A DNA stretch of 63,622 nucleotides, filler included, from Streblomastix strix (lineage: Eukaryota): assembly GCA_008636045.1 (NCBI GenBank). It is 2 parts of 2 records of this genome, joined end to end, with 100 filler letters (N's around TTAATTAATTAA, not from the genome) between each part and the next. Parts side by side here need not be neighbours in the genome. Positions count along the whole stretch, not along the records: positions 1 to 31,789 come from SNRW01000077.1; 1 more part is not named here. One strand, given 5' to 3'. Position 1 is the first letter of the stretch; every line of letters begins with the position of its first letter. Of the stretch, positions 8,913 through 60,700 are shown in pieces. Made by a program: the position numbers and the translations under genes. The notes under the pieces are model-generated. The model saw only the letters and a program-made list of their open reading frames with translations, was not told where the DNA came from and did no database searches.

Positions 8913-9385
8913 TTGCTTAAAGGTCAGAAGGTCAAAATGAGGAAGAAAGAGCAAAAGAAGATCTTATTGTATAGTTAATTAAATTTTGAAAATATGATTA
9001 TGTCATGATTTATGGGAATAAAGCGAAAAGAGCAATATTGAACATCATTTACAAGAATATTTCAAATTTATTATTATGAGAATTGATAGAATGTATATGT
9101 TTAACATTTGTGCAATTATTTTACTTTATTTTTAAGTTTTTTTAAATAATTTTTATTCTTTTTATATATTTTTATTGAATTTTAATCTTTAACATTATTA
9201 CAAGTTTATATCTACATCATATCACCATTTATTCCGATCCATCATTTGTGAAGCCAGATTTATAATACTTCTTTATTCTTTCTTTTTTTTTTTCTTTCTT
9301 TAATAAACATTTCACTTTCAAATATACTCTCTCATAAATAAAGAAGAAAAAGTTTGATTAATTTATTTTTTTTTATTTATTTAAA
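8913..9385 (+). repeat. Direct repeat copy 1 (~470 bp) of 10751-11215
   Basis: Both copies begin ttgcttaaaggtcagaaggtcaaa and share long near-identical blocks (e.g. ctttaacattattacaagtttatatctac..tttgtgaagccagatttataa). Confidence 0.9.
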
Positions 9386-9990: not shown

Positions 9991-10930
9991 GATTATATAT
10001 TAGGATGCCTTGAGGCTGTGGCCAGCACTCTTCACTGTTTCTACTTCAAATCAATCTGTCATTTATATCTTTCCCGAATGAGATGACCACCCTTCAACAA
10101 TTTACTGCTTAAACTTTTATGGTATTAACATTTACACTTTATTAACAATCAACTAATATTAAACCATTTATTTTTGTAGACATTTTCTGATCAGAATGCT
10201 TTCAAACACTCCACAATAAAGCTGTAATCCAATTCAAATGAACAAATCAAACAACAAATTCCAGAATCACTCATTCAATAACAATAATCTAAATAACCTT
10301 CACCAATTCCAAGTCAATGATTAGAGATGATAAAGAATAAAAAAGAAACTAAATCAGCTGTAACAATAAAACAAATATTTGACAATAGATTACGATAACC
10401 TTTTCATGCTCATTATATTCCACTTAGACTCACAAATTCAGAACAAAAATAGAGAAATCATTAATATTGTTAATTAGTGCACAAATGCAAAACAGATCAA
10501 ACTCGTCAAACATGAAACTAATCTTAACATGAATAACACCAGTCAAAATAGAAGTTCAGTGTCGCTACTTTGGCTTTGTTTGCCCAATACTTGATATGAC
10601 CATAATATCCTTTATTAATCAATTAAGCATCGATTTCTTCATTTGCACCTTCTTCTTCTATTTGCTCTACTGATCTACGAGCAAGTAAAGGTTAAAGTTT
10701 GAAATATGATTAAAATACTGAGTATTTATCATTTGCAACATAACCAACACTTGCTTAAAGGTCAGAAGGTCAAATTGTGAAAGAAAGAGCAATAAAAAGA
10801 TCTAAATGTTTAATTAATTAGAATTTGAAAATATGATTATGTCAAGAATTATGGTAATAAAGCGAAAAGGGCAATATTGAACATCATTATCAAGATTAAT
10901 TCAAGTTAATTTAGGATATTAAAAACAGTT
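9991..10930 (+). pseudogene. Degenerate coding remnant of unknown family whose 3' end is the duplicated repeat
   Basis: Codon-like Q/S/P-rich segments with GT-AG-like boundaries (10122-10179) and several TGA stops and frameshifts. Confidence 0.35.
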
Positions 10931-11215
10931 AATTGTTTTTAATTGCTCACTTTTTTTCACTTTATTTTTGAGTTTTTTAAATAATTTTTATTCATTTTAT
11001 ATATTTTTATTGAATTTTAATCTTTAACATTATTACAAGTTTATATCTACCTCATATCACCATTTATTCTGATCCTTCATTTGTGAAGCCAGATTTATAA
11101 TAATTCTTTATTCTTTCTTTTTTTTCTTTCTTTAATAAACATTTCACTTTCAAATAAACTGTTTTATAAATAAAGATGAAATTGTTTGATTAATTTATTT
11201 TATAATTTATTTAAA
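10751..11215 (+). repeat. Direct repeat copy 2 of 8913-9385
   Basis: Alignable by eye along its whole length. Confidence 0.9.
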
Positions 11216-23855: not shown

Positions 23856-25206
23856 TAGGCCTGGGCAAAAATGGCAAGCTGACAAGGCAATTTTTGTCTG
23901 CCATTCAGTAAAAACTTCGTTTGTCATTGTTTTAAAAAATACTATTTATTTTGCTTAAACTAAAAATAATTCTAACTAAAGATTTAACAGTTTATGTTAT
24001 AAATTAATAAAATTTTGAAAAATAAATAAAATAAAATTAAATAGTTATTGTTTAATATTATTAAAAAAAATTTAAAAGATTAAACAAAATTTGACTTATA
24101 TTTATAAAATAATATTCTAAATATATAAATATAAATTTACAAACGATATTTTTTACAAGTAATTCTTTATCAAACCGTGAAATGTTTCAGCGCATCATAT
24201 AGTTAAACAATAAGTTGTTGTCATATTTACTGGCATTTTATAAAAATTCTAATATAAATATAAAAATACTAATATGTATATTGATTTTTAAATGAAGAGA
24301 TATATCGGAATATTATGAAAAAAATTAATCAAAAATTCTGAAGAATTAATTATGGTTTTTGTCTTTTAAAATAGATTCATCAATAAGGAAATGTAAATAA
24401 AAATAATATAAAATAAATAAATTAATTAATAAAAATATATTTACAAATTGGAATATAATAAACAAAAGTATAAGAATTTCGTGGTTTAATTTTAAATATT
24501 TAAATTTGATTTGATTACTATTTAAAAAATCAATTATAATAATAAATATTTTTGAATTTATTTATACGCGTAAATAATGATAATAAAAATATTAAAATTC
24601 AGTTGATATTGGCAATTGAAGTGAAATAAAAAAAATTTCTTGCACTTGATATCCGGTTTAATATATTTGACTAAAACTTAAATAATTTAAATATAAAATG
24701 AAATAATTGTACGTTTAGTTATTTGGAACAGCAGATGCTTATATAAAAAAATCTCCATTGTAAATATCTTCAGAATTAAGAAAAATGTCAAAATGTCAAA
24801 GTGGCAGCAACTTTGGCATTTTAGCATTTTTGCACTTGATATTGATTCCGTTATGGGGCCAGGTCTTATTTTAAATTTACATTATTGCATATGAAATTAT
24901 AATTGTTTAATATTATTATAATATATAAATAATTTTTACATGATGCCTAGAAGCTGGTGAGCAAAAGTAAATAAAAAATTTAATCTTTTCAAATTTTTTT
25001 AAATTACTACTATATCTATATTTTATATTAGTTATATAACATATTAAATACTAATTATAAAACAATAACGTTATTTCGATAAAGTTTAAAATTTATTGAA
25101 AAAATAAATTATCAAGATTTGAATCTAACTGAAAAAAACTTTTTGTCATTGAAAAATAATCTGTTTGTCATTGAAGTTTTGAAATTTACACATTTACCCA
25201 GGCTTA
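23856..25206. mobile_element. Non-autonomous TIR element (MITE/hAT-like)
   Basis: Left TAGGCCTGGGCAAA (23856) vs right TTTACCCAGGCTTA (ending 25206); subterminal tttgtcattg repeats at ~23920, 25142, 25165; no ORF inside; no clean TSD. Confidence 0.55.
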
Positions 25207-25949
25207 GATAAAAAAATATTAAAAAAAGAAAAATTAATAAATCTTATTTCTCTTCTTGTACACATTTAAATAGATTTATCTGGATTCCTATATGAGTGTT
25301 AACAAAATACTAGTAATATACAAAGAAGAAGTTTGCCGTAACTCCAAAATCATACAAATTCAAATGAATTTACCCAACAAAACTAACGAATAAAAGTATT
25401 GGAAAGTATTTATCCACCACGTTGATGGGAAGCATGTATAAATAAACACTAATCCATCATGCTAATCCAAATTATTAATCCAGTGTGCAGATTCCGAGGA
25501 TTAATCATAAAAATTAATGCAGCAAGATTAATCATATGTATTATTGAGTATAGTAAACATTAGTAACTTCGTTACCGCAAAACGTACATATTGTTCAAGC
25601 GCATGTTGTTAATTTATAAATAAAAAATATAAAGGGTTAACAAATAAAGTTGGTCTTTTTAGTAAGCATGGTGTAACTAGTACACTGTGTTAGCGCCCAT
25701 CAAAAATAATCAAAAACATTTTTTATTAAGAAAAGCCTCAGCTATACATATTGATACTTGCGTATGATTAAGTGAACAATATAGATGGTTTACTTATTTT
25801 TTCTTTAAATCTATATCAAAATCTACAATTTCTATAGTCTTTTGTTTATATACGTTTTATAGTTATACTTCATACTGTTTAAGATAATCATATCGGGTCT
25901 AATCCATTTTAACAGGAAACATAAATTAATTAATCACTATAAATCAAAA

Positions 25950-26582
25950 TTAATATCTTTATCCATTTCTTCATACAACGCAGATTCCTTCTAACATTCG
26001 TTTGGAACATAAACTTATTCAATTATTTATTCTTTTTCAGTAATCTACTTAGGTTACCTATATCGTTTAACTTTTTATTTATATTTCTCCATTTGTTTAA
26101 CAGCACCATAATGTAATTTTTTAATAAATGAATTTTCAGTTCTCAACCAGATTAGTTCTTCCAAATCAAGTTCGGAATTAGTATAATAAATTTATGGATT
26201 TTTTGGTGTTTTTACTATTTTTTTTCTAACTTATTTCTTTAACGGTTTTTCGCTTACTTTGCTTATTGATATTTCATCTCTATCATTTTAATTTACATTG
26301 CTCCGATCTTCAATTACCTCTTATGATTCATAAGATATAAAATCTTCTTCATTATCAGCCTATTTTTAGGTTATTTTTTAATTATTTTCTTTGATTCCAA
26401 CCCTCCTCCAAGAGCTTTTAACAATAACTTATTCTATTATGTTTATGTTAATTTTTAAGTTTTTTCTTTCCTACTTCGAATACTATAATATCTTTATTAA
26501 TTTGGATTACTTTTCCATTGTCAAAATATTCAATATTTGTTCCATTGTCTTTCAAATTCTTTAAGGCGGGTTGTAAGTCCAT
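25950..26582 (-). pseudogene. Viral ORF A (charged, unknown), copy 1
   Basis: MDLQPALKNLKDNGTNIEYFDNGKVIQINKDI..; homologous to 48300-48942; frameshifted. Confidence 0.6.
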
Positions 26583-26605
26583 TTGAATATTTATAAATAA
26601 AGAAA

Positions 26606-27307
26606 ATGATAAGGGACATAGAAAGAAACAAAATTTACTTATCAAAATCCAAAAAATATAAGTCTGAAATTAAATTTAAAGAACTACCAGATGAAGATAA
26701 AATTAGGCTTTAATTGATTTATGATGCAATAAGCAGAATCAAGTCAATGCCAATAGTAGATGAAACGACAAGACCAAAAGAATAATATGATGTTATAAAT
26801 GAATCATATACAACCAGATCCCATAAGAAATATAGCATTAATAAATATTAAGAAGTTGATAGAACAACTGCTCAGATTGAACCAGAAGAAACAATAAATT
26901 AACTTGCAGAAGAATAACCAAAATTACAATATCTTTCTCATCTAAATTTAATAGTTTAAAAATTTGACATTGACACAATATTACGTACGATTACACATCG
27001 ATAGCGAGGTGACGATTTCATATTCTCATCAGATAACTTCATTAAATTTTGGTGCTTGATTACGTAGAATGATGAATAAGATGTAGAGATAGTATTGGAG
27101 GAAGCAATCATAAAGCCACATACATTTATGCCACGAAAGTATAAAAAAAGATTTGGTTAGAGTATAGGATATTTTAATCAAAATATATCAGTTAAAATAG
27201 TAGATAATGTTCTAAATAATTCTATTGAGAAACAATATTGAGTTAACTGTGATTTTATTCGAAAAAGTGATGTACGAGAAGTAGAGATTACAGATAATAA
27301 TTTTTGA
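26606..27307 (+). CDS. Viral ORF B (unknown), copy 1
   Basis: MIRDIERNK..YLSHLNL..RGDDFIFSSDNFIKFW..; TGA 27305-27307; homologous to 48965-49740. Confidence 0.65.
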
Positions 27308-27335
27308 TTATACTAATTTTATTTTTATCAAATAA

Positions 27336-27701
27336 ATGGCAGAGTAAAACAACTGGGAAATATTTAATGCAGATAATTACTTTGAAATGATTGCAAATGA
27401 ACCACATACTATAAGAAGAATAAAAGACGGATTTATTCCAAAAATCTCAAAGGATAAATCTTAAGGATATAACACTTCATATCTAAATTAATAGTAGCAT
27501 TTATATCATAGAATATTAGCAATTTAATTTTTACTTAATCTAAATAATTTATATAATATTGATCATAAAAATGGATTAAAATTTCGTAAATTCAAAAGAA
27601 ATTCTATAGGTAAATTATAAGTGTTTGTGAATGTTGTAGATATGGAATAGAAAAGAGTATAAATATCAATTAATAAACTAAGGAATGGAAATTATGAATG
27701 A
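27336..27701 (+). pseudogene. HNH homing-endonuclease-like gene, internally deleted
   Basis: EPHTIRRIKDG..GY..LN..HLYHRILAIQFLLNLNNLYNIDHKNG resembles the HRLVAxAFIPNPxNxPxVDHxN consensus of phage/NCLDV HNH endonucleases; the downstream DNxxxNL motif is absent. Confidence 0.7.
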
Positions 27702-27726
27702 ATAGCCTACTAATTTTGTAATAAAA

Positions 27727-28726
27727 ATGGAATAATAGCGTGAAATATCTCATGTCACTATGAGTAATTTAGATACGATTGATGAGAACGAATAGATTAA
27801 TTAATAAAAATAGGTAAATAAAAATAATATAATAATAAGTAGAGTAACAAAAATAAATTAAAGAATTTAATACATTATTATAATTTATTGATAATGAGAT
27901 AATAAAGTATTTTAATTATTTGAATTAATTCTTTAATAATTCTATCGATTTTATTAATTTATATTCTGACTAGATTATTCAAAGAATAAAGACATTTTTA
28001 TAACCTATAATAGCTGATAAAATTATTAGATAAGGTTGAACAAGTAACTAAATTCTATTAGCTAATGTAGATACTTCGAATTTAGATGATTTTCGACCAA
28101 AGGTAAGACGATATGCGTACGATGATTTTACTCTATAACCGAGTAATAAAGTTGATGACAAATTAGGTGGTATAAAAATAAGTAGAGGAGTTAATAAAGA
28201 AATAGAGAGTAATTTATATTTATGAATTAATGTCTATGATAGTATCTAAATAATCGATGGCCACACAGTGCTTATTCCTTATTTAGAATATAGTTAGGTG
28301 TTATCATCAAAATTAACTAGTACAACTACAGGATTTAAAAATGTTTAACCATTCTAAATTTAAAAAATGAAAAATGTTAATAATATAAATAAAGGAGTGT
28401 ATATCGATAAAGAAAAGGGTTCTTAGATTTATATAACTCCGGCATCGTTTATATTAATGCATATTTTCGTTGGACTTCATAACGGAGGTTCGACTAACAT
28501 TCATGTTATAATGGGAACCGTTGATGATGATTCTGTACTTAAATTTTTTGGGCTAATAATTATGTAGCATTTTATGACTTATTCAGCAAATATAAATTAA
28601 TATCTTGATTGTGCAATCAATTAGCAGGGATATTTTATTATAAATTCCAATTCTCTTATTAATTTACTATCACCATTAAACGTGGAAATTAATGGCACAT
28701 ATTTTTATAATTTTGGTGCAAGCTGA
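27727..28726 (+). pseudogene. Viral fibre-like protein 1, copy 1
   Basis: DQIIQRIKTFLQPIIADKIIRQG*TSNQILLAN (tail-fibre DQxIxGxKTF-like motif) followed by a copy-specific beta-rich domain; TGA 28724-28726. Confidence 0.55.
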
Positions 28727-28747
28727 TGATAATTTAAAAATAAACAA

Positions 28748-28880
28748 ATGGAAGGTTTTGAAGAGACAATCATTTACGCCCTAGATTAATTGAACATAAA
28801 CTGGCACACAATCTTTAATACTATTTGGGAAGCAGAAATCAAATACGTTGAGAATCAAAGATTTGCTGTCGAAAAATAAA
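28748..28880 (+). CDS. Small conserved viral ORF (unknown)
   Basis: MEGFEETIIYALDQLNINWHTIFNTIWEAEIKYVE; near-identical at ~51037-51170. Confidence 0.5.
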
Positions 28881-28917
28881 TTTACTTTTACTTCGGGAAG
28901 TTCGAACCTACGGTTCC

Positions 28918-30867
28918 TCACTGAGGTTTAATAGCTCCACCAGCAAGCTCACCAATAACATCAGCTTTTAGAACATATGGCATTGAACTGTCATTAAATA
29001 TGATCCTAACAAACGCATCACACAAGTAATGCGACATGGAGTAATAGATGCTTTAGTAGGATCAGGATATGCTCTAGTTCCAATGAATTATTTGAAATCA
29101 TTTTAGATCTATAATGGACTTACATTAGTTGTATCAATAATTCTTTTAGTCAAATTTTCATATAAAATCATTTATACATTAGTTCTTGACTTAATCTTTG
29201 AAGAGTTATATCCCCGCATAAATAAGTCATCAGTAGCCAATTTCCATGCAAACATATATTTGTTAGGATAAAGTGTTTTAATAGCTTTACTTCCACTATA
29301 CAATGATGTTAAATAGACTATATTAGCCATTTTGAATTAATTATTATTATCTATCAATCCATTGAAATTTTTCTTATCATCAATCTTCAAGTTCTTGAAT
29401 GTAAGAGAATGATATAGATCTGATAGAGCACTAACAACATCTTAATCAACAAAGCAGTCAAACATTTATCTATTAGTTGCACAATTTAATAATTTATATG
29501 GTTATGAGATAACATTATTCTAATCAATAACCAGATTGAGTCCCGTAAATAGTACAGGGAAAAACCATGTTGGATATTAGGGCATAGCAAATGTTATAAA
29601 TAGTACTTTTTATTAGAGAATTACATAATACTTTACATAGATCCACTTTCTTTATCAAATCCACTAAATGGAAAGTTCGACGATTATGCTCTAAATATTT
29701 GAGTAAGAACGTTTATTATTTTTTGTTATTGAATCAAACTAATTGTTGCTTCTTCATTTCCAATATTGAAGCTTACGTTCTAAATCTCCAATACATCAAA
29801 TTTAGCCGTTTCAATCTAGCTAATTGAATTTTGAGGTATTTTATCACCAACAGCCGCATTTTACATATTTACAATTCTTAACTTATATCTCTGTCATTCA
29901 AATCCATCCATATCATCACCTGCCAAAAGATTAACAATATCAGGTTTTTCAGGAGGAATCATATGACAAGCTAAATGATTTTTCATTATAGTATCATTTT
30001 TATTAAGTCAAACAACCTTCAAATCTTATAGGAAATCTTATATAAATAATTATATGTGTAATGTTGCATAGTTACGTTTAAATACAAGGAATGAATTAAA
30101 TTTAGTATTCAGGTAGTTAAAATCAAGTACTCCATTAAATGTAATATCAAAAGGAATTTTGTAATAGAATGGTGTTCCTGTAGTTTAAACAGTTGCTTGT
30201 CTGTCAATTTCACAACGTGATTTATCAATAAATACTCCACAATTACGTTTTCCTTCAATTATACTTTCTATTGGTGAAAAACTAAAGCTTTTTTTAGTGC
30301 ACAAATCACTAAGAGAATTACCACTAATTACTACGTATTCTCTTGCATAGATTGCAGATTCCCATAATTCTGTTGCATTTTTCATTAGTATGAATTGGTA
30401 GAATGGTCCACAAGCTGTTGAGAATCCGATCCAAAATTATAGATGTTCTGATGCTTCAATGCCTTAAGCTGTTTTACCATAATATCCTTATTACGCTTAT
30501 TACATATTTGTAGTCCAATAGGCTAATGGATCTTTTTTATGATTGAAATTAATTCAAGCTGTTAATTTGCTTTCAGTATCCCAATCATTATATGTTTCAT
30601 TTAATAATATCGCTAATGTATTTGCTGGTATAGTTATTCTCCAATTTACCTAACAAGTTTATACCATTGAACATGTTAATTTTCCTCGTGCTCCTAATGG
30701 CGCTCTGGTATATTTAACTCCACTAAATGTAAGTTAGGTAATAGGAGAATCGAAGAAATTTTGCTTTGATATTTCAAACGAATGAGGATGGATAGATAAC
30801 CACTAACGTAATCGGAATGTTGCATTTTTGCTAATCGTCTAAGATAATCACTGGATTTGAATGATAT
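28918..30867 (-). pseudogene. Putative major capsid protein (double jelly-roll), copy 1
   Basis: ~640-codon beta-rich ORF, strongly conserved between copies (EHLQFWIGFSTACGPFYQF, PTWFFPVLF, DVIGELAGGAIKPQ*). MCP identity inferred from size, conservation and linkage to the packaging ATPase. Frameshifts present. Confidence 0.6.
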
Positions 30868-30932
30868 TTCATTGAAACAAAAATTTACAAAATGGAACGG
30901 ATGTTTTTGTAAATAGTTTTATAATAAATCAA

Positions 30933-31141
30933 ATGGGTTTCATCTCTGGAATAGCAAATTTTGGATCAAAAAATGGTAGGTAGCGTTAAGAAAATTAGCA
31001 TAATGAGTTGCGTTAACATTACGTAAAGTTTAATTAAAAATATTAGGTCTTATTGGAATGATTCATCCGGGAATTTGAGGTGTATTTGGTGCAGGAGCCA
31101 ATCTTGCAGGTTCTATTGATAAATTAGTTAATAAACGCTGA
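30933..31141 (+). pseudogene. Small amphipathic protein resembling adenovirus protein VI, copy 1
   Basis: MGFISGIANFGSK..GAGANLAGSIDKLVNKR*; homopolymer frameshifts relative to copy 2. Confidence 0.55.
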
Positions 31142-31166
31142 TAATGACCAATTTATTTTTATAGAA

Positions 31167-31644
31167 AGGAACAACTCATTATCGTAACAATAAATCCATA
31201 CTGTTAGATAACTTATCACTAACTATATTGTCTACTATATTCAAAATTAGAAACGAGGTGGATCAAGTGTTGGAATGATGCCAAATGAAGAGTATCAATT
31301 ATTCATAGATAATAACAACGCATTAATCTTTGCAGCTAATAATTAAATCTTTGATGGAATGACATCAGATTACGTATTAAAATTAGAACCTAATGGATTG
31401 TTAGCAATGAAGAATTTGAAAGTGATTAATTTTGATTTAGTTGCTTAGATTAATTAGTTGATTAACTAAATGAATTTTTTATAACAATCAATTGGGACAA
31501 CTGAATAAGATATTTCTAATATAAAAAATTAAATTGATACCATTTATCAAGAATTATCACGATAAACACATTTCCGAGGATATTATTTATTGAATAGTGA
31601 CATATAAAATTTACCTAATTCCGCTAATGTAGATTTTTCATTTT
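31167..31644 (+). pseudogene. Viral fibre-like protein 2, N-terminal part, copy 1
   Basis: Homologous to 53487-53970 (QLFIDNNNAL..coiled coil..THFRGYYLLN); cut by an inverted chimera. Confidence 0.6.
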
Positions 31645-31789
31645 GTGGATTTGATAAAGAAAGTGGATCTATGTAAAGTATTATGTCATTCTCTAATAAA
31701 AAGTACTATTTATAACATTTGCTATGCCCTAATATCCAACATGGTTTTTCCCTGTACTATTTACGGGACTCAATCTGGTTATTGATTAG
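31645..31789 (-). repeat. Near-perfect inverted duplicate of 29520-29664 at the contig end (probable amplification chimera)
   Basis: Reverse complement matches the MCP segment ctaatcaataaccagattgagtccc..tttatcaaatccac. Confidence 0.85.
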
Positions 31790-31889
31790 NNNNNNNNNNN
31801 NNNNNNNNNNNNNNNNNNNNNNNNNNNNNNNNNTTAATTAATTAANNNNNNNNNNNNNNNNNNNNNNNNNNNNNNNNNNNNNNNNNNNN
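31790..31889. other. Artificial contig-joining spacer
   Basis: 44 N + TTAATTAATTAA (six-frame stop in the standard code) + 44 N = exactly 100 nt; the flanking contigs are of nearly equal length. Confidence 0.95.
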
Positions 31890-35247: not shown

Positions 35248-38200
35248 ATGAGCCATTCACATGATAGATAATAAAGACGTAAAAATCGAGGTAAGACGAG
35301 AGAAGACGAATCTTATTCTTCAGAATCATCCTCTGCATCATCTAGTACAACTACTGATGATTATTCATCACACTCATCATACTCACGATCTTCTAGATCA
35401 GGGTCATCTGATTCTCCTCGTAATTCTTCCCCTTCTAAATTATAAAATTTAACTAATTCTCATACTCCTGTAGACTCTTCTGAAAATAAGTATAATTAAT
35501 CTTAATAGATTAACATTAATTAAACTGATAATAAGTCAGAATCAATAATTTAATCAGGAACCAATCATTTAAATGCAGAAACTAATAATCAATAATAACA
35601 CAAATCTCCGCATTATCACAGCCATGACCACCATCACTCTGATCCCCGTCATTTTTCAAATTCATGAGACCATAGACACCGTCCATATCACCATTCTTAT
35701 GATCACAATTCACATTCCTCAGATAGGCACAAGAAAAGCAGTCATAGCCACAAATATGATTCGCGTGATTAATACAGGAGACATTCTCATGACTCTTATC
35801 ATCCACATCACCGCGATTCCAGATCGCCACGTCATAATTCTCATGGCCATCATCATATTAGTCATAATTAATCCAAACTTACTAAGAAAAATACAGCAAT
35901 GCTAAATTTCTCAAAACCACAAAATTCTAATTAAATTATAGGAAATACATAAAACCAATAATAAATCCTACAAAATAATAATTAACTGCCACAAACAAAT
36001 ATAACCAATTAATAAACTGCATTCTAGTAATCTCCAATTACAAGATCACAGCAGATGATCCAATAATAACAAGTGCATAATTCAACTTCGCTTGATACAA
36101 TTTACTCATAAAACGCATCTCCTACTCCAAGATCAGTTTCATAATCAGATTCAAACTAAGATATAAGTTCAAATTAAATCTTAAATTCGAATTAATCCTT
36201 AAATTAAAAAGGTCTATCAAGTCTGAGTACATCTTCTACAAACTCAACTGCTCTGGTTTCAATGTAGAATGAAATACAATCAGAAAAAGGGTCATAATAA
36301 TCTGCAATGAATGTAAATGAACAGCAGTTTGCGAAAAGCCAGAACTCAGTATCGAATTCACTATCTCAGTCAAGAAACGAAGCTGGGAATGAATAATCAG
36401 TAGGAATCAATACATCTCAATAACTTAATCAGTAAAAATAACAACAATAATAATAATAATAAAATTCATAAGATCCATAACATGGTCGAGAACAAAACTT
36501 AGTCGGAGTAGTTGTGAATGTACTCCATCGTGCATATGCGACCATGTTAAACGTGTAATTGGGGATTCGTGTGAGCATTGAAAGGGTTACAACAAAACCA
36601 AGTGTGAATATCTCATTAGATGATTTTTCTGAAGCTGTGAAATTTATTCTGCCGAAATTACCTGAGTTATAACCTGAGAATATGGAAGAGATCATTTCAT
36701 AAGCAAGGTAACAGGAAATGGAAGCTAATTAGAAGAAAGAAAAACAATAAAAATAAGAAGAGGAAGAAGAATAAAAATAAAAAGTTTAGGATTAATCTTA
36801 GTAAGAATAAGAAAAAGATTTAAAAAAGAATAAAAAAGACCATACTCCCTCAAAATTAATTAAATAACCACAATCTCCAATCCCATCAGAAACAGAGACA
36901 ATCTACACTGAGAAGGAAGAAGAAGAAGAAAGACAGCATGATGATATTGATGAACTAAACGAAGCACAATAAAAAAGAGAATCAAAAGGTAACAAACAAG
37001 ATGATCGACCGTATGACTTCAAATTCAAAGATTATGCACCTTTCATTTTTAGGAAGATGCGTGAGAGGTTCGGAGTTGACCCAAATGATTATATTCTGTC
37101 ACTTTGTGGGAATGAATCACTTTATACACTTCCAACACCAGGAAAATCATCCGCATTTTTCTTTTATTCATCTGATCAAAGTTTCCTGATTAAAACCATG
37201 ACCAGAAATGAATCATAATTTATGAGATAATTATTGCCAGCATATTACAAGCACACTATCCACTATAGAAACACTAACCTAGTTCGTATTTATGGTATGC
37301 ACAGACTTCGCGCTTTCAAAGGGAAAAAAGTGTACTTCATAGTGATGAGCAACATCTGCGATACAGATTTCCTGATCCATTAGAGATACGATCTGAAAGG
37401 ATCATCATATGGAAGATCCATCTCTGAGAAAGAAATTAAGAAAATCAGTGAAGGTTCAACATCAGTTATTCTAAAAGATAAGGATGTACATAGGACTTTC
37501 TGCTTAGGTCCAAACAAACACAAGCTTTTCCATCAGCAGCTCCAGATTGATGTGAATTTCATGCAGTAGAACAGGATTATGGATTATTCACTATTATTAG
37601 CTGTGCATAAAAGATCAATTGGTGGTGAAGGTGGATGGAATCGTGTTCCTTTTATACATTATCAGTAACTTCTGTATTAATAGTATCAATAATAGATAAT
37701 GACTCAGCAATAAGCTATTCAGATGTAACTTTAGATGTCGTAATAGTCTATGCAAATGTAATAGCAGATTTTTAATGGTTAATAGCAACAGCAGAAGTAT
37801 AGACGAACTAGTAATACTCATGGAGGTCGTAATAGGCGTGATTCATTACATGATACACAACTACCTAATATGCCACAGTAGTATTTTGGAATGAACATGA
37901 ACTACAACCAGTACCAAATGCAGATGCAGTAATTGGCATTAGTATAAGCACAAGCACAACAGCAATATCCAAACAATCAACTCATGCAAGAGATAAATGC
38001 TGCTGGTGGAATCAACATGAACATCCAAAGCTAATTTTTCCCAAGGTCCGCCAACATGCCTGCATCATAACGTGCAGTTCCAGTACAGGATAGGTTCACT
38101 GCAGATTTACCCAATGGTACAACTCTAACACATCCTGGTTTTTTGGGCCCCAAAGGAACTTGGGTGAATATTTTCTAGGCTGATTCTGGAGGGATGGTTA

Positions 38201-38580
38201 CAACAGATGACAGGAAAGTTGGGAGCGAGCCTGGGAGCGAGATTCTGTTTGTGGGCGTCATTGACATTTTAACGCGGTGGAACGGCAGAAAAAAAGCTGA
38301 GAATTTGTTAAAAAGGTCTTTTCTGAGGCAGGACGGGAAGCAGATTTCGGCGGTTTCTCCTGAGTACTACGGTGAGAGGTTCTTGGAATTTATGCGATGC
38401 ATATTCGTGCCATATAAACCGGAGCGTGTGCAGCGATTCAACTTCGGATTCCTGAAAGATTCGCCTTTCAAGGAAGCTGCTGCAACTGCGATATTAAAAT
38501 CTGCAGAAGAGGAAAAAGCAAAATAAAAAGAGTAGGAAGGTAAATTAGTTAAAAGTGGTTAAATGCAAGATAAGAAATGA
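35248..38580 (+). CDS. PIP5K: Phosphatidylinositol-4-phosphate 5-kinase (PIP5K/Mss4 family) with long S/H/Q-rich regions
   Basis: MLNVQLGIR, FKFKDYAP, PGKSSAFF..IKT, RYDLKGS, LKDKD, IMDYSLL, GVIDILT, ISAVSPEYYGERF; no introns within the CDS; TGA 38578-38580. One in-frame TGA at 35665, so the start may be 35899. Confidence 0.9.
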
Positions 38581-40813: not shown

Positions 40814-43800
40814 TCATTCACTTACATTATGAATTGTTTCTCTTAATGGAGTAAGAAGTTGCTCAACGAGTTTCTTATTGACGTTCTGGAGCAGTGGTTG
40901 TCTTTCTGGAGTATTTCCTGTTATAAGCGTTTACTGAGAAATAAAAATATTATAAATTATATTTTTTAAATAATAATTTATTTTAATTATTGAAAATTAT
41001 ATCCTTTGTTTTATAATATTCATAATGCATACTATGACAGAGTCTTCAACTGCGCTTTAGACTTCACCAGCCATTACTGGAAGAGCATCACTAATTGCTT
41101 GAGTGTAGTTTGAAAACTCCTCTGCTGCCTGTTAAATCTGAAATTAATGAATAAACATAAATATATATATCAAATAATAATCAATAATTCAAAAAGTTAT
41201 ATATTAATATTCTTTATCAAATTTTAATAATAAATACTTCTTTTCTTGCTTTTGATATTTCCTCTGATTTGTTCTGGTTTTCTTTTGATTTGGTCAATTA
41301 ACTCTTGATCTAAATTGCATTGCTAACATTTTCGAGTGATTACTGAACATTAGTATATTTTTCTTTGTCTAAAGCTAATTGTTATTCTATTACTGATTTA
41401 AATTGATTTTAATCATCATTCTCTTCCCTGAGTTAATTCATCTTCTCTCTGGGTAATCTTTCAATTTGAATTAATTAATCCAATCTAAATTATGTAATCT
41501 TTGCAATTTCATCGGGAAGAAGAAGATTTGATGATTTTTAATTACTGTTTATTACTTATTCCTATATTATTAAATTATTTTATTTATTCGTGATTTTGCT
41601 TTATTCATTATCAATCAGTTCATGAGTTTATGTCTTGGTTTCGTTTATTTTTTCTTTAATTAATTCAAATCCTTTGTTCATTATTGAATGAGAAGACTAA
41701 ACATTTTCTTTCAACAAAGTGAATTAAGAATTAAGATCCGAATCTTTTTCATATTCAATTTAAAATTCTTCATCTTCACACGTTTCAACTGCAGAAGCTA
41801 AAGCATCTGCCAATTCTTTCGCTTTTTAAGCTGCTTCTGATGCTTCTTTCGCTTTCATTGCAAATTTTTTACTATTTTCTTTCCTCCTTGATTATCTGTC
41901 TTCATTCATTATTCTCATTTATTCATGAACTTACTAAACAAGTGATTCAGCTTTAGCTATACTTGCATCAGCTTCTTTCTGACGTGATTCTGCTTCAGCA
42001 AATGAACCAATACATTTTTTTATTACAGAAGCCTCAACTTAAATTAAACTATCTATTTGTTATTGTTCTTATTATTTGATTACTAATTTTGTATCATAAA
42101 CATTTCTTTCTAATGCTTTGAATGGTTGAATGATTTATTAAATTATTTCATGTTATATTAATGTTGATTATTGCTCTGATTCTTATTAATATTTATCTTA
42201 TTCTTATTTATTCTTCTCTATATATTTCGAAATCATATCAGTTATAACTCCAATAAGGTCATTATTGATCCAACTGATTAAACTTCCAACTTAATTTGAG
42301 TGATCTGAAATAGCTGAATTAATTAATCTCTATCTTTCAGTACTCTTGGTCTCAAACTCTGAAAGTTAAACACATATCCCTTCCAATTTAGCTCGATGTG
42401 AAGCGCTGAATTCTCGAACTACTCCTTGTTCCTCTTCAATGCATATTTATAGCTTTTATTTAATTGAATCTTTTCCTGCAGTATTTTAAGCTTCTGTTAA
42501 ATTCAATCTGTCAATCTTTTAATGCAACAATTCAACATTAGCTGCTTCATCAAGTAATTGGTCTCCTACAAGTTGAAACTTATGCTATTCTCTATTCAAA
42601 CTTCTTTATGTCTGAAGCAGCTTTCTCTCCATTGTTTGTAGTGCTCCTTGTGCAGATTCAAGATCAAATTAGAGTCTAACAACTGATTGTTCAAGTTCTC
42701 CATATTATTCAGAAAGAGCATGCAATTATTGATCTTGGGCATCTTTCGTTTCTTTCAATGTTTCGTTTTGTGATTCCAATTCCAAATGATCCATGCTCAA
42801 TTCGTCAAATGCAGTTTATTTCTAGAGTAATTCTTTCTTTGTTTCTGAAATCTCATTTCTTTTCTGATCCAATATTTTATTTTTCTCTTCAATTTCTTTC
42901 TCCATCTCTTTGAATGTATTTTCTGAAAGATAAACTCCTTCTCTTTTCCTCATATCTTCCAATTGCGCTTTAAGTTTCCTTATTTCAGTTTCATATTCTT
43001 TAATAAGTGAATTCTTTGTGAGTAACTAATTCACTTCTGGTCTGTTTTCCACATTTCCTGTGTTTTTAGCAAATTCTAATGTACTGTTTGTCACATCAGC
43101 ACAATTCATAGTCAAGTTAATAGTAGCAATAAGTGTTGTCTTATTATTACCACCAAGTGAGTTCTGTAGCAATCTAGTCAAAGGACTATCACGATATGGA
43201 ATGTGAAGTGATTGCGTATTAGATGATGATTCTTTATTTAACGATATTTGTGTTTGAATTGGACCCTGTGAAGAATGCCTTCCTGGATTTGGAGTAATTG
43301 ATCTTTCATATCCTTATGATTATTATAATTAACTTGTACCCTAATTATTTAAATTTTGCTTCTACGAAAGCAAAGTAATCACTCTTCCCAAAGTCAAGAG
43401 TGATTTATTGATAGCTCCAGCTTCAGATGCTTATTTTGCATCTGCACCACTTCGCTCTACATTCTCAGATCCAGCAAGATCCACCATATGAAGTTTCCCA
43501 GTAACTATTTTTTCTTCACCATTTGAACCAGTCTCTTTAGTCTGAACTGTTATTGTGAAGATTGAATGCGAACGTGATGATCTTTTGTGGATTGCTGTAT
43601 CTGCTGTTATCCGATGTCTTGCGCCTTGTTCAAGCCAGAATAGTGCTTCTTCAATGCCACGAACTGGATGCTCTTCAAGACCAACTACAATTACTTCTTT
43701 ATTGGAGTTCTCTCGAATTGTTAAGGATTTCTTACCTGCTGAGTTCAATGCGTTTATTGAGTTTTATGTTGATGGTGCAAATGATGATGTTGTACTTTAA

Positions 43801-44856
43801 TTGACTAAATTATTTGATGTTAGTCCTGATGTGAAATTCTATGAAAGTAGATCAAAAAGTTCTTCTTTATATACCTCTACATTTGATATGCTGACATTGA
43901 ATGAAGTGATTGGATTCCCACCATTGAGCTGAAACATTGAAACATCAACAGTTTCACTCAGTTCAGATGAGTTTGCAAGATTCGCAAGTGAATTATAAAG
44001 AGAATTTGAAATATGATTTAATCCAGTATTTGTTGCAGGTGTTGGAGTGATAGATCTCTGAAGATGTGCATATGGTGTTTGTAAAATGGATGATGATAAA
44101 GAAGAAGAAGAATTAGTTTCATTGTTTAATAGATGAGAGGGTGTTGAATAACTTACTGGTGTTGTTGCTCTTCCATGATTACCTTTGGTTGTTCCTTTGA
44201 CTGAAAACTGAACATGTGTGGCTCGGCGAGTTACTGGGGATGTAATTTGATTGTTTTATGGTGGTATTAGAGTCACTTATGATGGCTGTTTAACTAACTG
44301 TTAGTAAACAGGTTTTGCAGCTTTGTTGATACTGGCTTGAACAGGGCATGCTTCATTCAGGACTTAGAAAATACGGTGTATAGAGCGGGGAATCATTCCA
44401 ATTTGTGTAGGTTCGAGCCCACCACCTTCTCGATGGAGTCCTTCCATTGTATATGTTTTCCCAGTTCCTGTTTGCCCATATACGAATATTGTGCAATTGT
44501 ATCCTTTCAAGACATCATCTACAACTGGCGCAACCTGTAAAATAAGAAAATATTTAATTAATATGATATAAAATTGAATCAATATAACATACAATGTCTT
44601 TAAATATAACATCTTGTGAAGCATCAGGTCCATACACATCGGTAAAATTGAATGTTTTGACAGATGATTTTTCCCGAGTTCCAGCTGATCCTCTGCTATT
44701 TTTTACTGCACTATCTGTAATACCAGAAGTGGAAGGTATCTCTATTTAACCTCTTTCAGATACATAAACTGAAGCGTCTTCTCCTGCGAAGAGGGGGCGA
44801 GCTCGGATGACAACTCTGATGCACGACCTTGACGCACAAGTTTTAAGAATAGACAT
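40814..44856 (-). CDS. KIF11: Kinesin-5 (BimC/Eg5 family)
   Basis: [70 protein letters not shown] neck, coiled coil, tail BimC box TGNTPER; introns 44592-44535, 41237-41138, 41032-40934. Confidence 0.93.
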
Positions 44857-48259: not shown

Positions 48260-48299
48260 TTTTTAATATAGGAACAAAAAAAATTGATCAATATATTTC

Positions 48300-48942: not shown

Positions 48943-48964
48943 TGAATATTTTTAAATAAAGAAA

Positions 48965-49740: not shown

Positions 49741-49795
49741 AATATTTATTTTAGCTGTCATTTTTTATATTTGATTATTATTATCGACAACAAAA

Positions 49796-50240: not shown

Positions 50241-50260
50241 TGATTATTTTTGTAATAAAA

Positions 50261-51016
50261 ATGGATTAATAATTAAGCGATTTAGATATGATTGATGAAG
50301 ATGAATAAGTTAATTATTAAAAATAGGTAAGTAAAATAATATAATAATAAGAGTAATAAAAATAAATTAAAGAAAAAAATTTGTTATTATAAGTTATTGA
50401 TAATTAGATAATAAAGTATTGTAATTATTAGAGATAATTTTTTAGGAACTCTATCGATTTTGTTAATTTACATATTGACTAGATTATTCGTGGGGTTAAG
50501 ACATTTTTATAACCAATCATAGCTGAGAAAATTATTAAATAAGGTAGAATAAATAATTAAATTCTATTAGCAAATGGAGAATCTATTGATAAGGATAAGT
50601 TAGACTATGAACCTATTGAAAATGCATGTTATTCATCAATTGCTTAAGGAATGTATGAGTAACGAATATGGAATAATTTAACATCATAAAATAGTAGAGT
50701 ATATGTATCATTGTTAAAAGCTCACTCTGACTCTAATACTGTGTGCAATACAGGATATACTTTATTTTCAATCGTTGATAATGACATAAAACCAAAATTC
50801 ACTGAAACATCTTGTAATATATTTTTTAATGCTATTATATATGCGACTAAATAATCTAGTCAGCCAATAGTATGAATTAATGCAGTTGCAATTGATTGTT
50901 ATATTAATACTAATGGAAATGTTATAATAAATACAATGTATTAGCTAAGTTTACCTGATGATTTTTCTGTTTAGGTTTGTGATTCATATGCTATTCATAA
51001 TTAATCATCAAATTGA
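50261..51016 (+). pseudogene. Viral fibre-like protein 1, copy 2
   Basis: DFVNLHIDQIIRGVKTFLQPIIAEKIIKQGRINNQILLANGE, then a C-terminal domain unlike copy 1; TGA 51014-51016. Confidence 0.55.
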
Positions 51017-51215
51017 TTAATTTAAAAATAAACAAATTGACGGATTAAATGAAACACTCATTTATGCTCTTGACTAATTGAACATAAACTGGCACGCAAT
51101 CTTTAATACTATTTGGGATGCAACAATTAAATATATCTGCGAATCAAAAATATGTAGATGACAAATAAATTTATTTTTTAATAATTTTGTTATTAGAATC
51201 ATTGATTATGCATTT

Positions 51216-53460: not shown

Positions 53461-53486
53461 AATTTATGTAATTTATTTTTGAAGAA

Positions 53487-55587
53487 ATGAACAGTTCATT
53501 ATCGTAACAATAAATCCGAACTGTTCGATTGCTCATTACTAACGATATAGCTTACTATATTCAATATTAGAAACGAGGTAATTCTAGTGATGGATTGATA
53601 TCAAATGAAAAGTTTCAATTATTCATTGATAATAACAATGCATTAGTCTACGCCGCTAATAATTAAATCATTGATGGAATAACATCAGATTACGAATTAA
53701 AAATAGAACGTAATGGACTATTAATTGTAAATAATTTGAAAGTGATTAATTTTAATTTTGTTTCATAAATTAATTAGTTGATTAATTAAGTGAATTTATT
53801 ATAATAATCTATTGCAACAACTGAATAGGATATAACCGATATAAAAAATGATATTGATTCCATTAATTAAGAATTATCAAAATAAACACATTTCCTAGGA
53901 TTTTATTTATTGAATACAGATATTTATAAATTTACCAAAATTCCGCTAATAGAGATTTTTCATTTAGTGCTGAAAGTGGGACAGTTTGGATGTATGATTA
54001 AAATTAGTATAATAGTGGATATATAGTTCCAGATCAAGTTTCGCCTGCAAGTGATGCAACTCCAATATCTGATGGTACAGCAACTGCAGGAATTAGCACA
54101 GAATATTCATGTGGAGATTATATGCATTTATTAAATATAGCTACTACTATTACGCCTAGTGATTCTGCCAATGGATCTGTTGGTACAACTAATTATTATG
54201 CTAGATCTGATCACTCTCATCCAATTAATATAACAACATCAATACCTCTTCAAGATAGTGCTAGTGGATCAATTGATACAACTAATTATTACTCTAGAAA
54301 CGATCACTTACATCCAATTAATGTAGAAACTAATGCTTCAAATATTCCAATCGTTAATGGTGTTGGATTTAATGGAAGATCAGCATTTTTACGCTAGAAA
54401 TGATCATGTTCATCCATAGTAATTAACATATGATGGAAACATTACAGAGACTAGATTTATTAAAACAGGAGTACAAATCAATAAATATTAATGACTGATG
54501 GAACAAATAAACAAATAACAGATTTTAATTCAAATATTGTATCAAAAAAGTACTAAATCAATCCTGATAATGGTATATATTAGTATTGTCTTGCTGTTTT
54601 GACAATACCTGATTATACATTTGATTAATCATTTTGATGTACTATTGATATTAATAATACTTTTTTTCATTAGTTATTTTATCAACTTAAGTGAAATCTT
54701 AGAATATTGCTAGAATTTAGAAGGTAATTTGAAGTTACTCAATTTGTTTCAATATATACAGATTTTATAATATGTGTTGATATATCTGAAACATCACATA
54801 TTTTGAGATTCTATATGAAATCATTTTAAATATCTTATTATATTCTTTAGAACATTAATTTATCATAATTCTCAGATGCAAATGTTCGTGATAATTTTAA
54901 ACTATTAGATAATATAAACTATTAAAATATAACTCCTGATACATTACCAACTGGTTCATAATTTGCAGTTACAGCCGAATAAAATCAATTCTTTAACAAA
55001 GGAGGAATAATTATTGGAGATGAATAAATTAATCCAATATGTAATAATTATAATTAAAGTATAAGAATATCACAGTCTCCTAATAGTGAATACAGTGGAA
55101 TTTTTCTGGGCTGTTGTTCAAATTTAACTACTGGACCATAAGAAGGTTTGTGGAGTATATTAACACCCCCAGTTGTGAATTAAAGATAGTGGTTAATGTA
55201 TAAAATGAACAGGCAAATTAAGGATCACTAATATCAGCAGATGGAAAAGCATTATCTTTCAATGGGAATATATTCATTGATTTTTGAACTGATTAAACAA
55301 TTACTGTTAGAAAAACGTTTAATAGTATATTTTAAATAAATCCAATTGATGATAATTTTAATTAAGGAATAAGAATATCGCGCGCTGCCGTTTATAATTA
55401 TAGTGGAATTTATCTTGATTGTAGTCCCATATCAACTGGTGGAACATTATCAAATTAGTTGAGCATAATAAATACACCTACTTTTGAATTTAGGATTGGA
55501 GTTGGTGAATAAATTGTTCAGGATAATAAAGGACTAATGATATCCGCTGATGGAAATATATTAACTTTCAATAGAAGAACACATTGA
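53487..55587 (+). pseudogene. Viral fibre-like protein 2 with phage tail-fibre HxH repeats
   Basis: N-terminal coiled coil; repeats YARSDHSHP, YSRNDHLHP, ARNDHVHP; TDQTITVRKTF; two C-terminal repeats (IRIS..YSGI.L.C..ISADG..L.FN); TGA 55585-55587; several frameshifts. Confidence 0.7.
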
Positions 55588-56727: not shown

Positions 56728-57746
56728 ATGACTTTATAAGAATTATAGGATATAACATTTACGAACTAAGATCTATTGAATGAATATAAAACTAAGCCAT
56801 TAACGAAGAATTCATTGTTCTTTATTAATAGTAATCATTATATTGTTGCAGCTGTTGGAAGTGGTAAAACAACATTAATGTGTAAGCTAATTGTGATATA
56901 TAAAAAAGCAATTGATCCATTCATATTATACTTCTCGAATTATGATGCGAATGAAAATATGGCTTTAAACCTTAATATTAAGATCATATAATTAACTGAT
57001 GTAATTTTTGGAGAAGCAATGATATTTCAACCTGAATTTGATGAGATGAAATACATAACTAAGGAGATATACATTTGGTATAAATGAAAGAAGAAAAATA
57101 ATCCTATACTAGTGATTTCATTAAGCGAATGGAAGAATAAATATTATAAGCTAATGAGATTAAAAAGAATGAAGAACCTAATGATAATCTTAATTGAATT
57201 GTTGAACTATTCAAATAAAAAGTAATCGAAACCATTAATACATATAGTTAACCAATCAAGATATTGAGATTCGATATCCCTGCACTAGTACAAAATGTTA
57301 GTAACTAAAAGAAATACAAAATAGCGGATGATGATTAAAATGCTGATATAAAAATAATGAAAATACTTATATTAGAAAAAGTTTAATTACTCAATACATT
57401 AATGTTATTCGATGACAATGGATCTAATACAGATATCTAGCGAATTAGTTCATTACTATCTAAAACAATAACACATCTCATTAATGATTCTCGTCATTCA
57501 AAAAACACTATTTTCTTTATTGCATAACGTCCTATTTATTTGTTTAAGACAGCAAGGATATTAACCAATGTTAATTGCATAGGCGTTAATCTAGGAGAAA
57601 CTGATCTAAGATAAGTGTACGATGAAAATACGATATAAAATTTAGATTTTGATCAATTCCAATTATAAAAATATACTTTAAAGAAATATGAGTTTATCAT
57701 ATTGAATAAGTGGATGGGGAAATTTGAGATTCTCAAAAATAAATGA
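56728..57746 (+). pseudogene. A32/FtsK-HerA family DNA-packaging ATPase
   Basis: Walker A IVAAVGSGKTT, Walker B LMLFDD, Arg-finger DSRH, sensor TIFFIAQ (Q = TAA); internal TGA and frameshift. Confidence 0.88.
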
Positions 57747-57759: not shown

Positions 57760-60700
57760 TCAAATAAATAATCCTTAGCAGTTAATCCATACATAAATGG
57801 ACAGCATGACTGATTCGCTAGCTCGATCATTTTATCGTGAATTTCTGTGATTTCATTTTTTTCGATAGCTAATTAACTCATCTAATGATTCTTCTAGACC
57901 AATCTCATATTATAACATTTCACTATCATACATTCATTAGCACAATCGACTATCTAGTATTTAGTGATTTTATTAGTCATCTAATTAACTCCTCTTAATT
58001 TTATTTTTGAATCATCGCAAAAAATTCTAGAATTTAATATAATATTTAGGAGCTAATGCAATCAATGATGGACCTTGTCGTTCGATCGCTAATCCAAGGA
58101 TTTTCTTCTCATCATATATGTCTGATTTAATCGTTGGGAAGAAATATTTAGCATTATCGTTATAAAAATCTCGATCTTTAATTATAGCATTAAATTATTA
58201 AGTAAAATCTTCATTAGAATTTCCACTAATTGACCAATAAGCAGAATCAGTATCTCCTTCTATAAAATATATTCTATCCATATCTAAACATTTATACATG
58301 AAGTTATATATCAAATTTAGATACCAATATTTAGCATTATTAAATACAAAGAATGCAACTTATGAAGTAGTTTTACAACAGCAATGCTCTGGATTCATTT
58401 AAACAAGATAATTGTCTTCTGATATTTTTTGTTCGTCCATGAACGCATTAGATCTAATAGCTTTTTCTGTTTACTTTCTATTCATTATTTTAACTTTATG
58501 ATATTTCTCTGTATTCATTCCATCACTACCATATGAGCTATTCATAATTATCTTAAAGAATTATTCTTATCCTTTATTCTTATCTAATTTTGTTTCAATT
58601 CTGTTTTAGTAAATTCCTTAATAAATGAGTTGAATTAATCATGATTATTGAATAGCACTATCTATTTCACATCATCTATAATAAAATGACAATCATTAAT
58701 TAAGAACCATAAATAGTATGAACTAAATGCCAAATATTCTCCCATCGTTGATGATAAATTAGTTAGCTTTCTTTATTTTTGATCTGCTTTAATCGTATTG
58801 TCTTTCATGTGATTGAACATATATGATCCGAAAGTTCTTTCATCAGTTGTGAATTCATAATTTCTTAGAATAGCTAGGAAATTAATGAAATCGTTAACAA
58901 CATTGTTGCTGGAACCATAGGTGCTAAGGTAATTCTCTTAAATATTACCTTTGATTTCTGCAATGAATTATTGACCATCTTCTGTGAATCTCTTTTTAAT
59001 ATAAATTATTTGTTATTTTGTTTACTTTTAATGTACAGTTTCTCCTTCAATCTTACCAGTTTACGATACATACAAATACATTTTACCTCCTGTATACATA
59101 ATAAATTTATGAGGCTCTGATGACATAACACTATAATATAAGGAATTGAAATCAACATCAATTACATGAGTTATTCGATGATCAGTTGTTAAAACAGTTA
59201 TTTTCTTGGCTTCTCTGTTATAATATAATCGTTTTATAAAATCAATTCCTGATATATTAACTCTATGCATTACATTTGAAAATCCTCCTGTGATCCATTT
59301 TCTGATTAAATGATATACATCAATATCTGTAAGGTTAGTCGGTAAACATCTTATCATGCAATATTTACGTAATTATATGAACAATTTACCTATATTTTTA
59401 TCTTTATCCGAGCAGAAGCAATTGCAATATAAGCAGCAAGGTAAAACATTATCTTTTGAATGACCTATTGAATTATCGATTCTATCTAGTGTTGGTTTAA
59501 TGGCAAAAGTGAATTTACATCCGCAAATGCTGCAATTAGAATATATGAGTAATTGTTTGAAATATTCGAAATCCTTATTTTAAACGTTATTTGTTGTGTC
59601 TCTTCATTAATGTTTATCTTATAATTGATTTCCCCGTATTTTATTTTACCAATAGTTCTCTGTTAAGTAAAATTTCTATGAAAAATCTTCAAAATTTGAA
59701 TATACTCCATTAATGTCAAAATCCTCATAGGCTATAGCATATTTGATAGCGTTAGAGCATGCTACTATACTCATAAAACCAAACATATCAATCTTATATA
59801 TAAATTGTAAGCTAATTAATGTCATTAATGGTTTGATCATTATATATGTATCTTACTCATTATAGTATTGTAAATAGTTCCATGTATCTTTAAATCGTTT
59901 TGCATCTTTTAGATAAACTTAATAATCCTTCTAGCTAATTTTAGTATTCTTTAATGATGAGGTGAAATCTTCCATCGTAAATGGTTCTGATTTACTTAGT
60001 ACTTCATTAACGTTGTCAGTTTTGAAAGTTACATATGAAAATAGGCCTTTTTTTATCATCATATCCGTCACCAAAATTTTTTGCTGCTTACTTTAATTCC
60101 ATAGGTTATAGATACATTAACATGTCAAAAAATTTCACTTTCAAATTCAATTTCTTATGATGCACAATTATTTGTTTTGCTATTGTAGGGCTACCAATAT
60201 AATTACTGATTATCCAATCTTTGCATTACATATGTGATATGATTAATGATATATCAGATCTTGAGCTATTGAATCCAATTATTGGTACTTCTATTGAATA
60301 AGGAACTGTTTCATCAATTGTACAAGCTTCTGTGATATATTAGTTATCTGCATTAACTTACTCAGCTTCTTTAAACAATTAATGTAACCATCAAACTATA
60401 AAATCATCTCCATCCTATTAGTTAAAGAAAATTTTCTTAATTCATTATTTGTTACGAATAGTTGATGCAACTGATAAAGGAAGTAGTTCATACATTTAAT
60501 AGCTTGATTTACCGAACTATTTATTAACGATTTTAGGTATAGTTTTAAGTTCGCATGTGATGAAGTATTGTGAAGGTTTAAATTCATGTTATCTTCCATT
60601 TGCTAATGGATATTGATAAGTTTTATTCTGCATAATGTGTGGAACAAATAGCTTTTAGATATAATCTAGTTTAACTTTCTTAACTATTTTTCCTTCGTTA

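Follow-up and report, generated by a model that had tools for sequence, protein, structure and literature searches.

Probable recombinational exchange of diverged distal cassettes in a fibre-like gene of endogenous viruses of Streblomastix strix

The window analysed here, the whole 63,622-nt stretch of Streblomastix strix DNA, carries two related viral segments (copy 1, ~25900-31650; copy 2, ~48270-53970), each with a fibre-like gene, copy A in segment 1 and copy B in segment 2. The question raised by this locus is how two genes that agree up to the same short motif come to end in different C-terminal parts. The original prediction was an exchange of receptor-binding domains, as in phage tail fibres.

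The genetic code of the window is NCBI code 6, in which TAA and TAG encode Q: the standard code yields 7 ORFs of at least 90 aa, and code 6 yields long host-type ORFs. Host-type genes readable in this code adjoin the viral segments, and the element is found integrated in a eukaryotic genome in many copies. Two ORFs between the segments are presumably of this type, namely one at 35899-38580 (+) that we take, from its motifs, to be PIP-kinase-like and one at 41217-44856 (-) that we likewise take to be kinesin-like. The protein clusters matched by copy B are all S. strix hypothetical proteins (78 of 78), which makes this termite-gut oxymonad the likely host. Copy counts were taken from protein databases and contigs; the contigs are from four public runs, which stem from no more than two samples and the best of which may come from the sample that yielded the window. 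An AT-rich host region contains a direct repeat of ~470 bp (8913-9385 and 10751-11215, 86.5% identity).

Table 1. Features of the two fibre-like genes and of the viral segments around them (positions in the window)
Feature	Position	Strand	Remarks
Copy A, N-terminal part and shaft up to and including the anchor QILLAN	27727..28066	+	frameshift near 27820, TGA at 28037
Copy A, optional A-type module	28067..28408	+	homologous to the ~95-aa B module; TGA at 28223
Copy A, site with ~94 bases fewer than relatives	28395..28414	+	module-head linker missing, frame change
Copy A, A-type head	28414..28726	+	stop at 28724-28726
Copy A, shared downstream block	28730..31647	.	small ORF (+), long gene (-), beginning of the second fibre-like gene
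Copy B, N-terminal region and shaft to QILLAN, shaft type S1	50261..50575	+	
Copy B, B-type head after a module-free linker of 11 aa	50576..51016	+	head 50612-51010
Long broken gene, candidate major capsid protein	~28990-31000 and 51300-53450	-	~80% conserved between copies
Second, longer fibre-like gene, copy 2	53466..55580	+	related module twice: 55025-55263, 55333-55572
Broken ATPase gene	56728..57746	+	Walker A GSGKT, Walker B-like LFDD visible
Broken DNA polymerase gene	58012..60062	-	DFNSLY, NSSYG, GDTDS motifs; within 58012-59357

The match up to QILLAN is borne out by blastn (27767-28071 against 50280-50580, 83.9% identity over 305 columns, E 1e-88), as is the return of identity right after the stop codon (28730-31647 against 51018-53969, 80.4% over 2971 columns). 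Between these joints the tails comprise 219 codons in copy A and 146 in copy B under code 6, close to the ~215 and ~145 read originally, and blastn at default stringency finds no match between the DNA of tail A and tail B. In windows of 60 bases, the two copies are 78-91% identical over 27752-28051, gapped and 43-68% identical through the tail, and mostly 75-98% identical after 28700, with one window at 55%; the boundaries are steps at both ends, with no slope. Independent contigs place the same switch points, B-type tails branching off at 28074-28075 in all four public runs and B-type ends joining at 28727-28733 in two of the four. The earlier statement that the two C-termini do not align is correct only for DNA compared at normal stringency: relaxed blastn carries the downstream match back to 28534/50813, inside the tails, the last 33 aa of the tails are 33% identical (blastp, E 0.009), and homology emerges through an intact relative.

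This relative, the intact S. strix A-type protein P0112, is among 109 matches of a profile search, is 41% identical to tail A and fills the gap in copy A. Word-index searches with the A tail and with the last 119-aa ORF returned nothing, and A-type relatives were reached only via the profile search. Compared with a profile of B-type tails only, P0112 gives an hhalign probability of 98.4% (E 7e-15, 220 columns, ~28% identity), and against separate B-only profiles it scores 48.6 bits for the tail, 37.6 for the module and 23.4 for the head, and in no case did any of 3000 shuffles reach the score. The tails compared are both 241 aa long, and the alignment of P0112 with the B long-class protein P0027 runs end to end (28% over 261 aa, E 3e-19). 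Copy A itself scores 13.1 bits for the head (0 of 5000 shuffles), 8.1 bits for the module (6 of 5000) and 12.4 bits for the whole tail (1 of 5000) against the B profiles, values that are low and yet above chance; the broken A tail lies at 12-13 bits, with an hhalign probability of at most 21%. Given that P0112 matches profiles that contain no A sequence, we conclude that tails A and B are distant homologues; the A and B lineages are ~25-35% identical in module and head. The view of the two C-termini as unrelated domains is thereby not supported. Profile homology with gradual divergence had been named as the outcome that would speak against a domain exchange; the homology is there, and the gradual divergence is not, the boundaries being steps. 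When alignment A2 was scanned against viral_contigs and metagenome_contigs, none of the 14 and 63 pattern matches, respectively, was confirmed as a relative.

The family reveals a gene of three parts: a shaft, an optional module of ~95 aa and a head. The anchor is present in 67 of 80 proteins, with tails of 144-147 aa in 16 and of 238-241 aa in 13, the remaining anchor-bearing proteins being fragments or odd gene models. The long class equals the short class, to which the module-free copy B belongs, plus ~95 residues between anchor and head; the difference in tail length is mostly this optional module and not a different head size. Among 51 typed proteins (of 59 usable among the 80, with 8 untyped and 8 too short excluded), the module is present/absent in 1/24 with shaft type S1, 1/11 with S2, 6/3 with S3 and 5/0 with S4, so that both states occur behind three of the four shaft types (S1, S2 and S3) and not behind S4. 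On a head tree of 31 rows the module label needs two changes, with one not excluded, and module loss may therefore be one or two old events, which counts against frequent shuffling. The anchor motif occurs two to three times per protein in 15 fetched proteins, and the B module ends in a stretch that is similar to the shaft anchor motif and was aligned with it by MAFFT; gain and loss of the module could thus proceed via this internal imperfect repeat. A heads are scarce, at 4 of 179 fetched proteins with the window copy counted and with queries that favoured B, and the summed contig depth in X1 (13,000-65,000 over the shaft against 87-800 over the A tail), although it gives no copy number, agrees with this tally. 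At 28423-28481 and 28674-28745, X1 and X2 contigs reveal a second, more diverged A-like head lineage, which matches only in patches at 80% likeness and whose summed depth exceeds that of the A type found in the window.

Neither window copy is an intact ORF. In copy A, the base at 27820 is one that relatives lack in the contigs, and at the TGA at 28037 relatives in contigs have G at the first base. The A module, which is also homologous to the repeats of the second fibre-like gene, is 41% identical over 113 aa to P0112 and 71% over 24 aa to P0125. The ~94 bases missing from copy A between module and head are present in two X1 contigs and appear as a gap of ~31 aa against P0112. In the head, 28414-28482 is in a different frame from 28484-28723, and at 28483 two contigs have one base fewer than copy A; the first of these parts is 65% identical over 23 aa and the last 62% over 76 aa to P0112, and tblastn of P0103 matches the copy A head in two frames. 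Reading 28411-28479 in the other frame brings no gain against the B head profile (14.9 versus 14.8 bits), so it is the match of A-type relatives there, and not the B head profile, that upholds this frame. Copy B has a TGA at 50873, where at least 90% of aligned relatives have Trp, and its head scores 202 bits against the head profile. TGA as a sense codon was considered and rejected: in relatives the codons at the two A stops begin with G and the codon at the B stop mostly encodes Trp, for which reason we regard the TGA codons in both copies as lesions. Copy A is probably an S1-like shaft with an A cassette, and at least five lesions have inactivated it.

Mosaic copies elsewhere in the family bear directly on how the tails came to differ. 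The module of P0103 is 78-83% identical to three B modules and 41% to A, its head is 64% identical to A and 21-27% to B, and module and head are joined without an alignment gap and with the frame kept. In quick trees of 22 rows, in which long branches were flagged, the P0103 module falls among B rows and its head pairs with that of P0112 (support 100; path 0.44 versus at least 3.5 to B). P0144 has the same order, a B module followed by an A head, and in P0125 the A module follows a shaft of another kind; in both P0112 and P0125 the anchor stands directly before the A module. An X2 contig of 1050 bp matches the downstream gene, the A head and the shaft, the last two lying ~260 bases closer together, and, by this spacing only, would fit an A-like head without module. 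Three B heads that were compared are 48-62% identical among themselves, and A and B heads are 21-27% identical; for the P0112 head against P0047 and P0055, only 2 and 8 columns aligned and identities were left out. Clear A/B chimeras, whose low number likewise speaks against frequent shuffling, make up 2 of the 179 fetched proteins, both of them automatic gene models from a fragmented assembly; P0012, picked up as a third candidate by a loose pattern, is B-type. The joints lie at the QILLANG motif, the module-head linker and the stop codon. As other copies mix these parts, the viruses likely swap attachment modules by recombination, and the abrupt boundaries together with chimeras of B module and A head support the predicted exchange of the distal part.

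Is the protein a fibre? A low-confidence AlphaFold model of the B-type long-class protein P0047 (27-row alignment, mean pLDDT 39, head blocks 39-63) has a beta-rich domain at ~160-285 behind a shaft with pLDDT ~30. In Foldseek searches of the PDB with this model, 21 of the best 22 rows are viral fibre or receptor-binding proteins, with siadenovirus, reovirus, atadenovirus and lactophage heads at the top ranks; the best E is 4e-3, and no match reaches E 0.001. In an independent wide structure search, the top match is avian reovirus sigmaC (Z 9.1, rmsd 3.0, 112 aligned), followed by sigma1 (Z 7.0-7.1), a mouse adenovirus fibre (6.6), a dextranase domain (6.6) and the virophage protein Zav_19 (6.5); NMV_189 scores 5.2. 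Dextranase domains, at Z 6.3-6.6, lie near most of these fibre heads, and because Z below 8 may reflect a common arrangement, the fold claim rests on the top match and the consistent ranking. BFVD matches comprise reovirus sigma1, adenovirus fibres and phage tail fibres plus unnamed and collagen-like rows, and Atlas matches to Gp53-like_C, BppL_N and gp37_C clusters (0.81-0.82) are leads only. From the model we therefore predict for the B head a beta-sandwich like that of adenovirus, reovirus and virophage fibre heads. As the model of the A-type P0112 failed (pLDDT 39, best Z 4.0, uninformative fold searches), the same fold is ascribed to the A head by sequence homology. A three-copy prediction of the B head (score 0.00, alignment unused, fold uncertain) bears neither way on a trimer. 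The anchor motif is also found in non-Streblomastix proteins, and P0156 matches PHROG tail-fibre families over that region; the studied protein and its close paralogues match no Pfam or PHROG family, a Pfam six-frame scan of 24001-31789 found 0 families in 18 pieces, and a sequence search of solved structures gave three matches at E 0.27-0.63, none meaningful. The likeness of the B-type head model to viral fibre heads, together with a shaft motif in common with a phage tail-fibre-like protein, supports the identification of the protein as fibre-like.

The rest of the element bears on the virus class. The minus-strand candidate capsid gene has no Pfam match, and an Atlas search with the corresponding part of a relative gave nothing above lead level. 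From their motifs, we take the ATPase to be the likely packaging ATPase, with only weak P-loop Pfam matches (E 0.07 or worse), and the polymerase to be a family-B DNA polymerase, likely protein-primed, with no Pfam match at cut-off; the Pfam scan of copy 2 covered selected ORFs. No terminal repeat pair was found around copy 1, which is cut at N gaps, and copy 2 runs off the window. The element is likely a Polinton-like virus (PLV); as the candidate capsid gene is without confirmation, we treat this assignment as likely and not as shown. In the second fibre-like gene the two modules are 70% identical to each other (self-match; module profile i-E 0.002), short tandem repeats lie at 54166-54325, and relatives are found by tblastn; since these S. 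strix relatives vary in length and repeat content, this gene is perhaps shuffled too. At the end of copy 1 (31647), 155 bp repeat 29520-29674 in inverted orientation (98%) beside two N gaps (31635-31889), which may reflect a rearrangement or an assembly join. Just upstream of the copy 1 fibre gene lies an HNH-like ORF (27336-27701, +; 54% over 70 aa to a PF13392-bearing protein), in place of which copy 2 has a different segment at 49796-50107 (+), a second variable slot beside the fibre gene.

Combining the boundaries, the mosaics and the predicted fold, we think it probable that the gene product is a short attachment fibre of an endogenous virus of Streblomastix and that homologous, deeply diverged cassettes of the gene have been exchanged by recombination at conserved joints. 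In this model, (i) the product would be a short capsid fibre consisting of an N-terminal anchor region, the shaft, the module as an optional spacer and the head, (ii) recombination between co-resident virus lineages would replace the module, the head or both, with crossovers made possible by flanks of 80-84% identity and by the short conserved motifs where domains meet, and (iii) by analogy, the fibre would stand as a trimer on the capsid with the head binding a cell-surface receptor, so that a change of head may change binding specificity. Exchange among active viruses and exchange between integrated copies are both compatible with the data. A bolder version, speculative and on balance unlikely, is that the integrated copies act as a library of fibre cassettes, in which fixed joints allow shaft, module and head to be recombined among endogenous copies, broken ones included, and reactivated viruses, so that particles with new attachment specificities arise. 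If true, such particles would target other gut protists, a helper giant virus or bacteria on the surface of the host, and phage tail-fibre shuffling would have its counterpart in a eukaryotic DNA virus, with the host genome as the source of cassettes.

Alternatively, the exchange is real, but the fibre-head fold belongs to a protein that decorates the capsid or has a structural role, the mosaics being neutral products of recombination or gene conversion among endogenous copies. That both window copies are broken is in line with this alternative, as are the presence of a second, longer fibre-like gene in the element and, according to 10.1101/2023.01.23.525297, the occurrence of the fibre-head fold in the tail-less NMV_189, anchored on capsomers. 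We nevertheless regard it as quite unlikely, given that the shaft motif is common to the studied protein and phage tail-fibre-like proteins and that joints at domain borders, with the frame kept in P0103, are as expected if functional products are retained.

We give little credence to the mosaics being assembly chimeras or gene-model artefacts of a high-copy repeat family. High-copy protist viral insertions do misassemble and gain false stop codons (PMC10120064), depths in X1 of tens of thousands on the shaft and of hundreds on the A tail make false joins possible, and no listed contig covers the whole gene. However, a separately assembled contig equals 28046-28664 with 0 differences, in a run that is perhaps the window's own sample, so that the A tail and its lesions are present in reads, and a second-study run matches 28066-28216 with 1 difference. 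At the window's own shaft-to-A joint the identical contig has ~26 bases on the shaft side, under the 31-base criterion; other contigs do join, in a relative, the shaft to the A module (28033 to 28119) and the A head to the downstream gene (28674-29089), and P0112 and P0125 carry the anchor-A module order.

Very little credence, in our view, attaches to the possibility that no recombination took place and that the distal part merely evolves faster under diversifying selection. Fast evolution is common in attachment tips, and the tails are collinear as well as homologous; however, the drop in identity is a step at both ends, three B heads remain 48-62% alike while A and B are at 21-27%, and rate alone cannot yield the B module with A head of P0103. 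The conflict between module and head trees largely refutes this possibility, if the loci are real. Replacement of the original C-terminal domain by an unrelated, non-homologous one is scarcely tenable, since the low scores of the broken A tail against B profiles, the unfolded A model and the lack of a default blastn match between the tails are outweighed by the end-to-end alignment of the intact P0112 with the B long class.

How does the favoured reading, cassette exchange in a viral fibre, compare with known systems? In phages and adenoviruses, the exchange of receptor domains is textbook knowledge, as in T-even gp37/gp38, the heads of lactococcal receptor-binding proteins and adenovirus fibre recombinants. 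The likely exchange of homologous cassettes in a predicted viral fibre is known in kind from phages, and surprise is limited, the principle being textbook and both window copies being dead genes. As in phage tail fibres, the proximal part is conserved, the distal part is exchanged and the joints lie at conserved motifs; in contrast to phages, the host is a eukaryote, the virus uses the TAR=Gln code of that host, and many integrated, decayed copies are possible donors.

The predicted C-terminal beta-sandwich of ~125 aa behind an extended shaft resembles the fibre heads of reovirus sigmaC/sigma1, si-, at- and aviadenoviruses, the receptor-binding proteins of lactococcal phages p2 and TP901-1 and Zav_19 of the Zamilon virophage. 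It differs from them in that structural alignments give 3-12% identity with no profile match and in that the Streblomastix gene has an optional module between shaft and head. The fold is common to unrelated non-enveloped viruses and has been shown in a virophage, as 10.1101/2023.01.23.525297 states; the present data extend it, by prediction, to a metamonad virus.

S. strix viral capsid genes that use the host code and belong to a Metamonada MCP group have been described (PMC10120064), and these endogenous viral elements share the likely host and genetic code with the element studied here; the main text of that paper contains no 'fiber', 'fibre' or 'tail'. Among Polinton-like viruses, phage-like modular fibre proteins are described in PMC12220804, Ltf of Gezel-14T/PgVV was found in Gezel-14T virions (10.1101/2022.07.28.501842), and a truncated tail-fibre gene was noted in a Tetraselmis PLV (10.1101/2025.10.09.676808). 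In giant viruses, genomic islands are enriched in adhesion genes (PMC13620141). The Streblomastix genes are like these modular fibres (PMC12220804, Ltf) in being fibre-like, in mixing and matching domains and in belonging to endogenous viruses of protists; unlike them, the protein is short and has no match to the Pfam domains (S74 chaperone, laminin G, collagen, BppL) whose architectures those reports compare between lineages. In the open-access literature we found no description of within-gene exchange of fibre cassettes among PLV copies or for the Streblomastix family. Fibre domain content is known to differ from one lineage of Polinton-like viruses to the next, and the Streblomastix genes bear on how such viruses choose and change hosts. 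Two natural head types on the same shaft provide a ready pair of small domains for structural and binding tests. In contrast to the comparisons between lineages, the probable exchange in Streblomastix is visible among closely related copies within a single host, and its joints are located to within a few bases.
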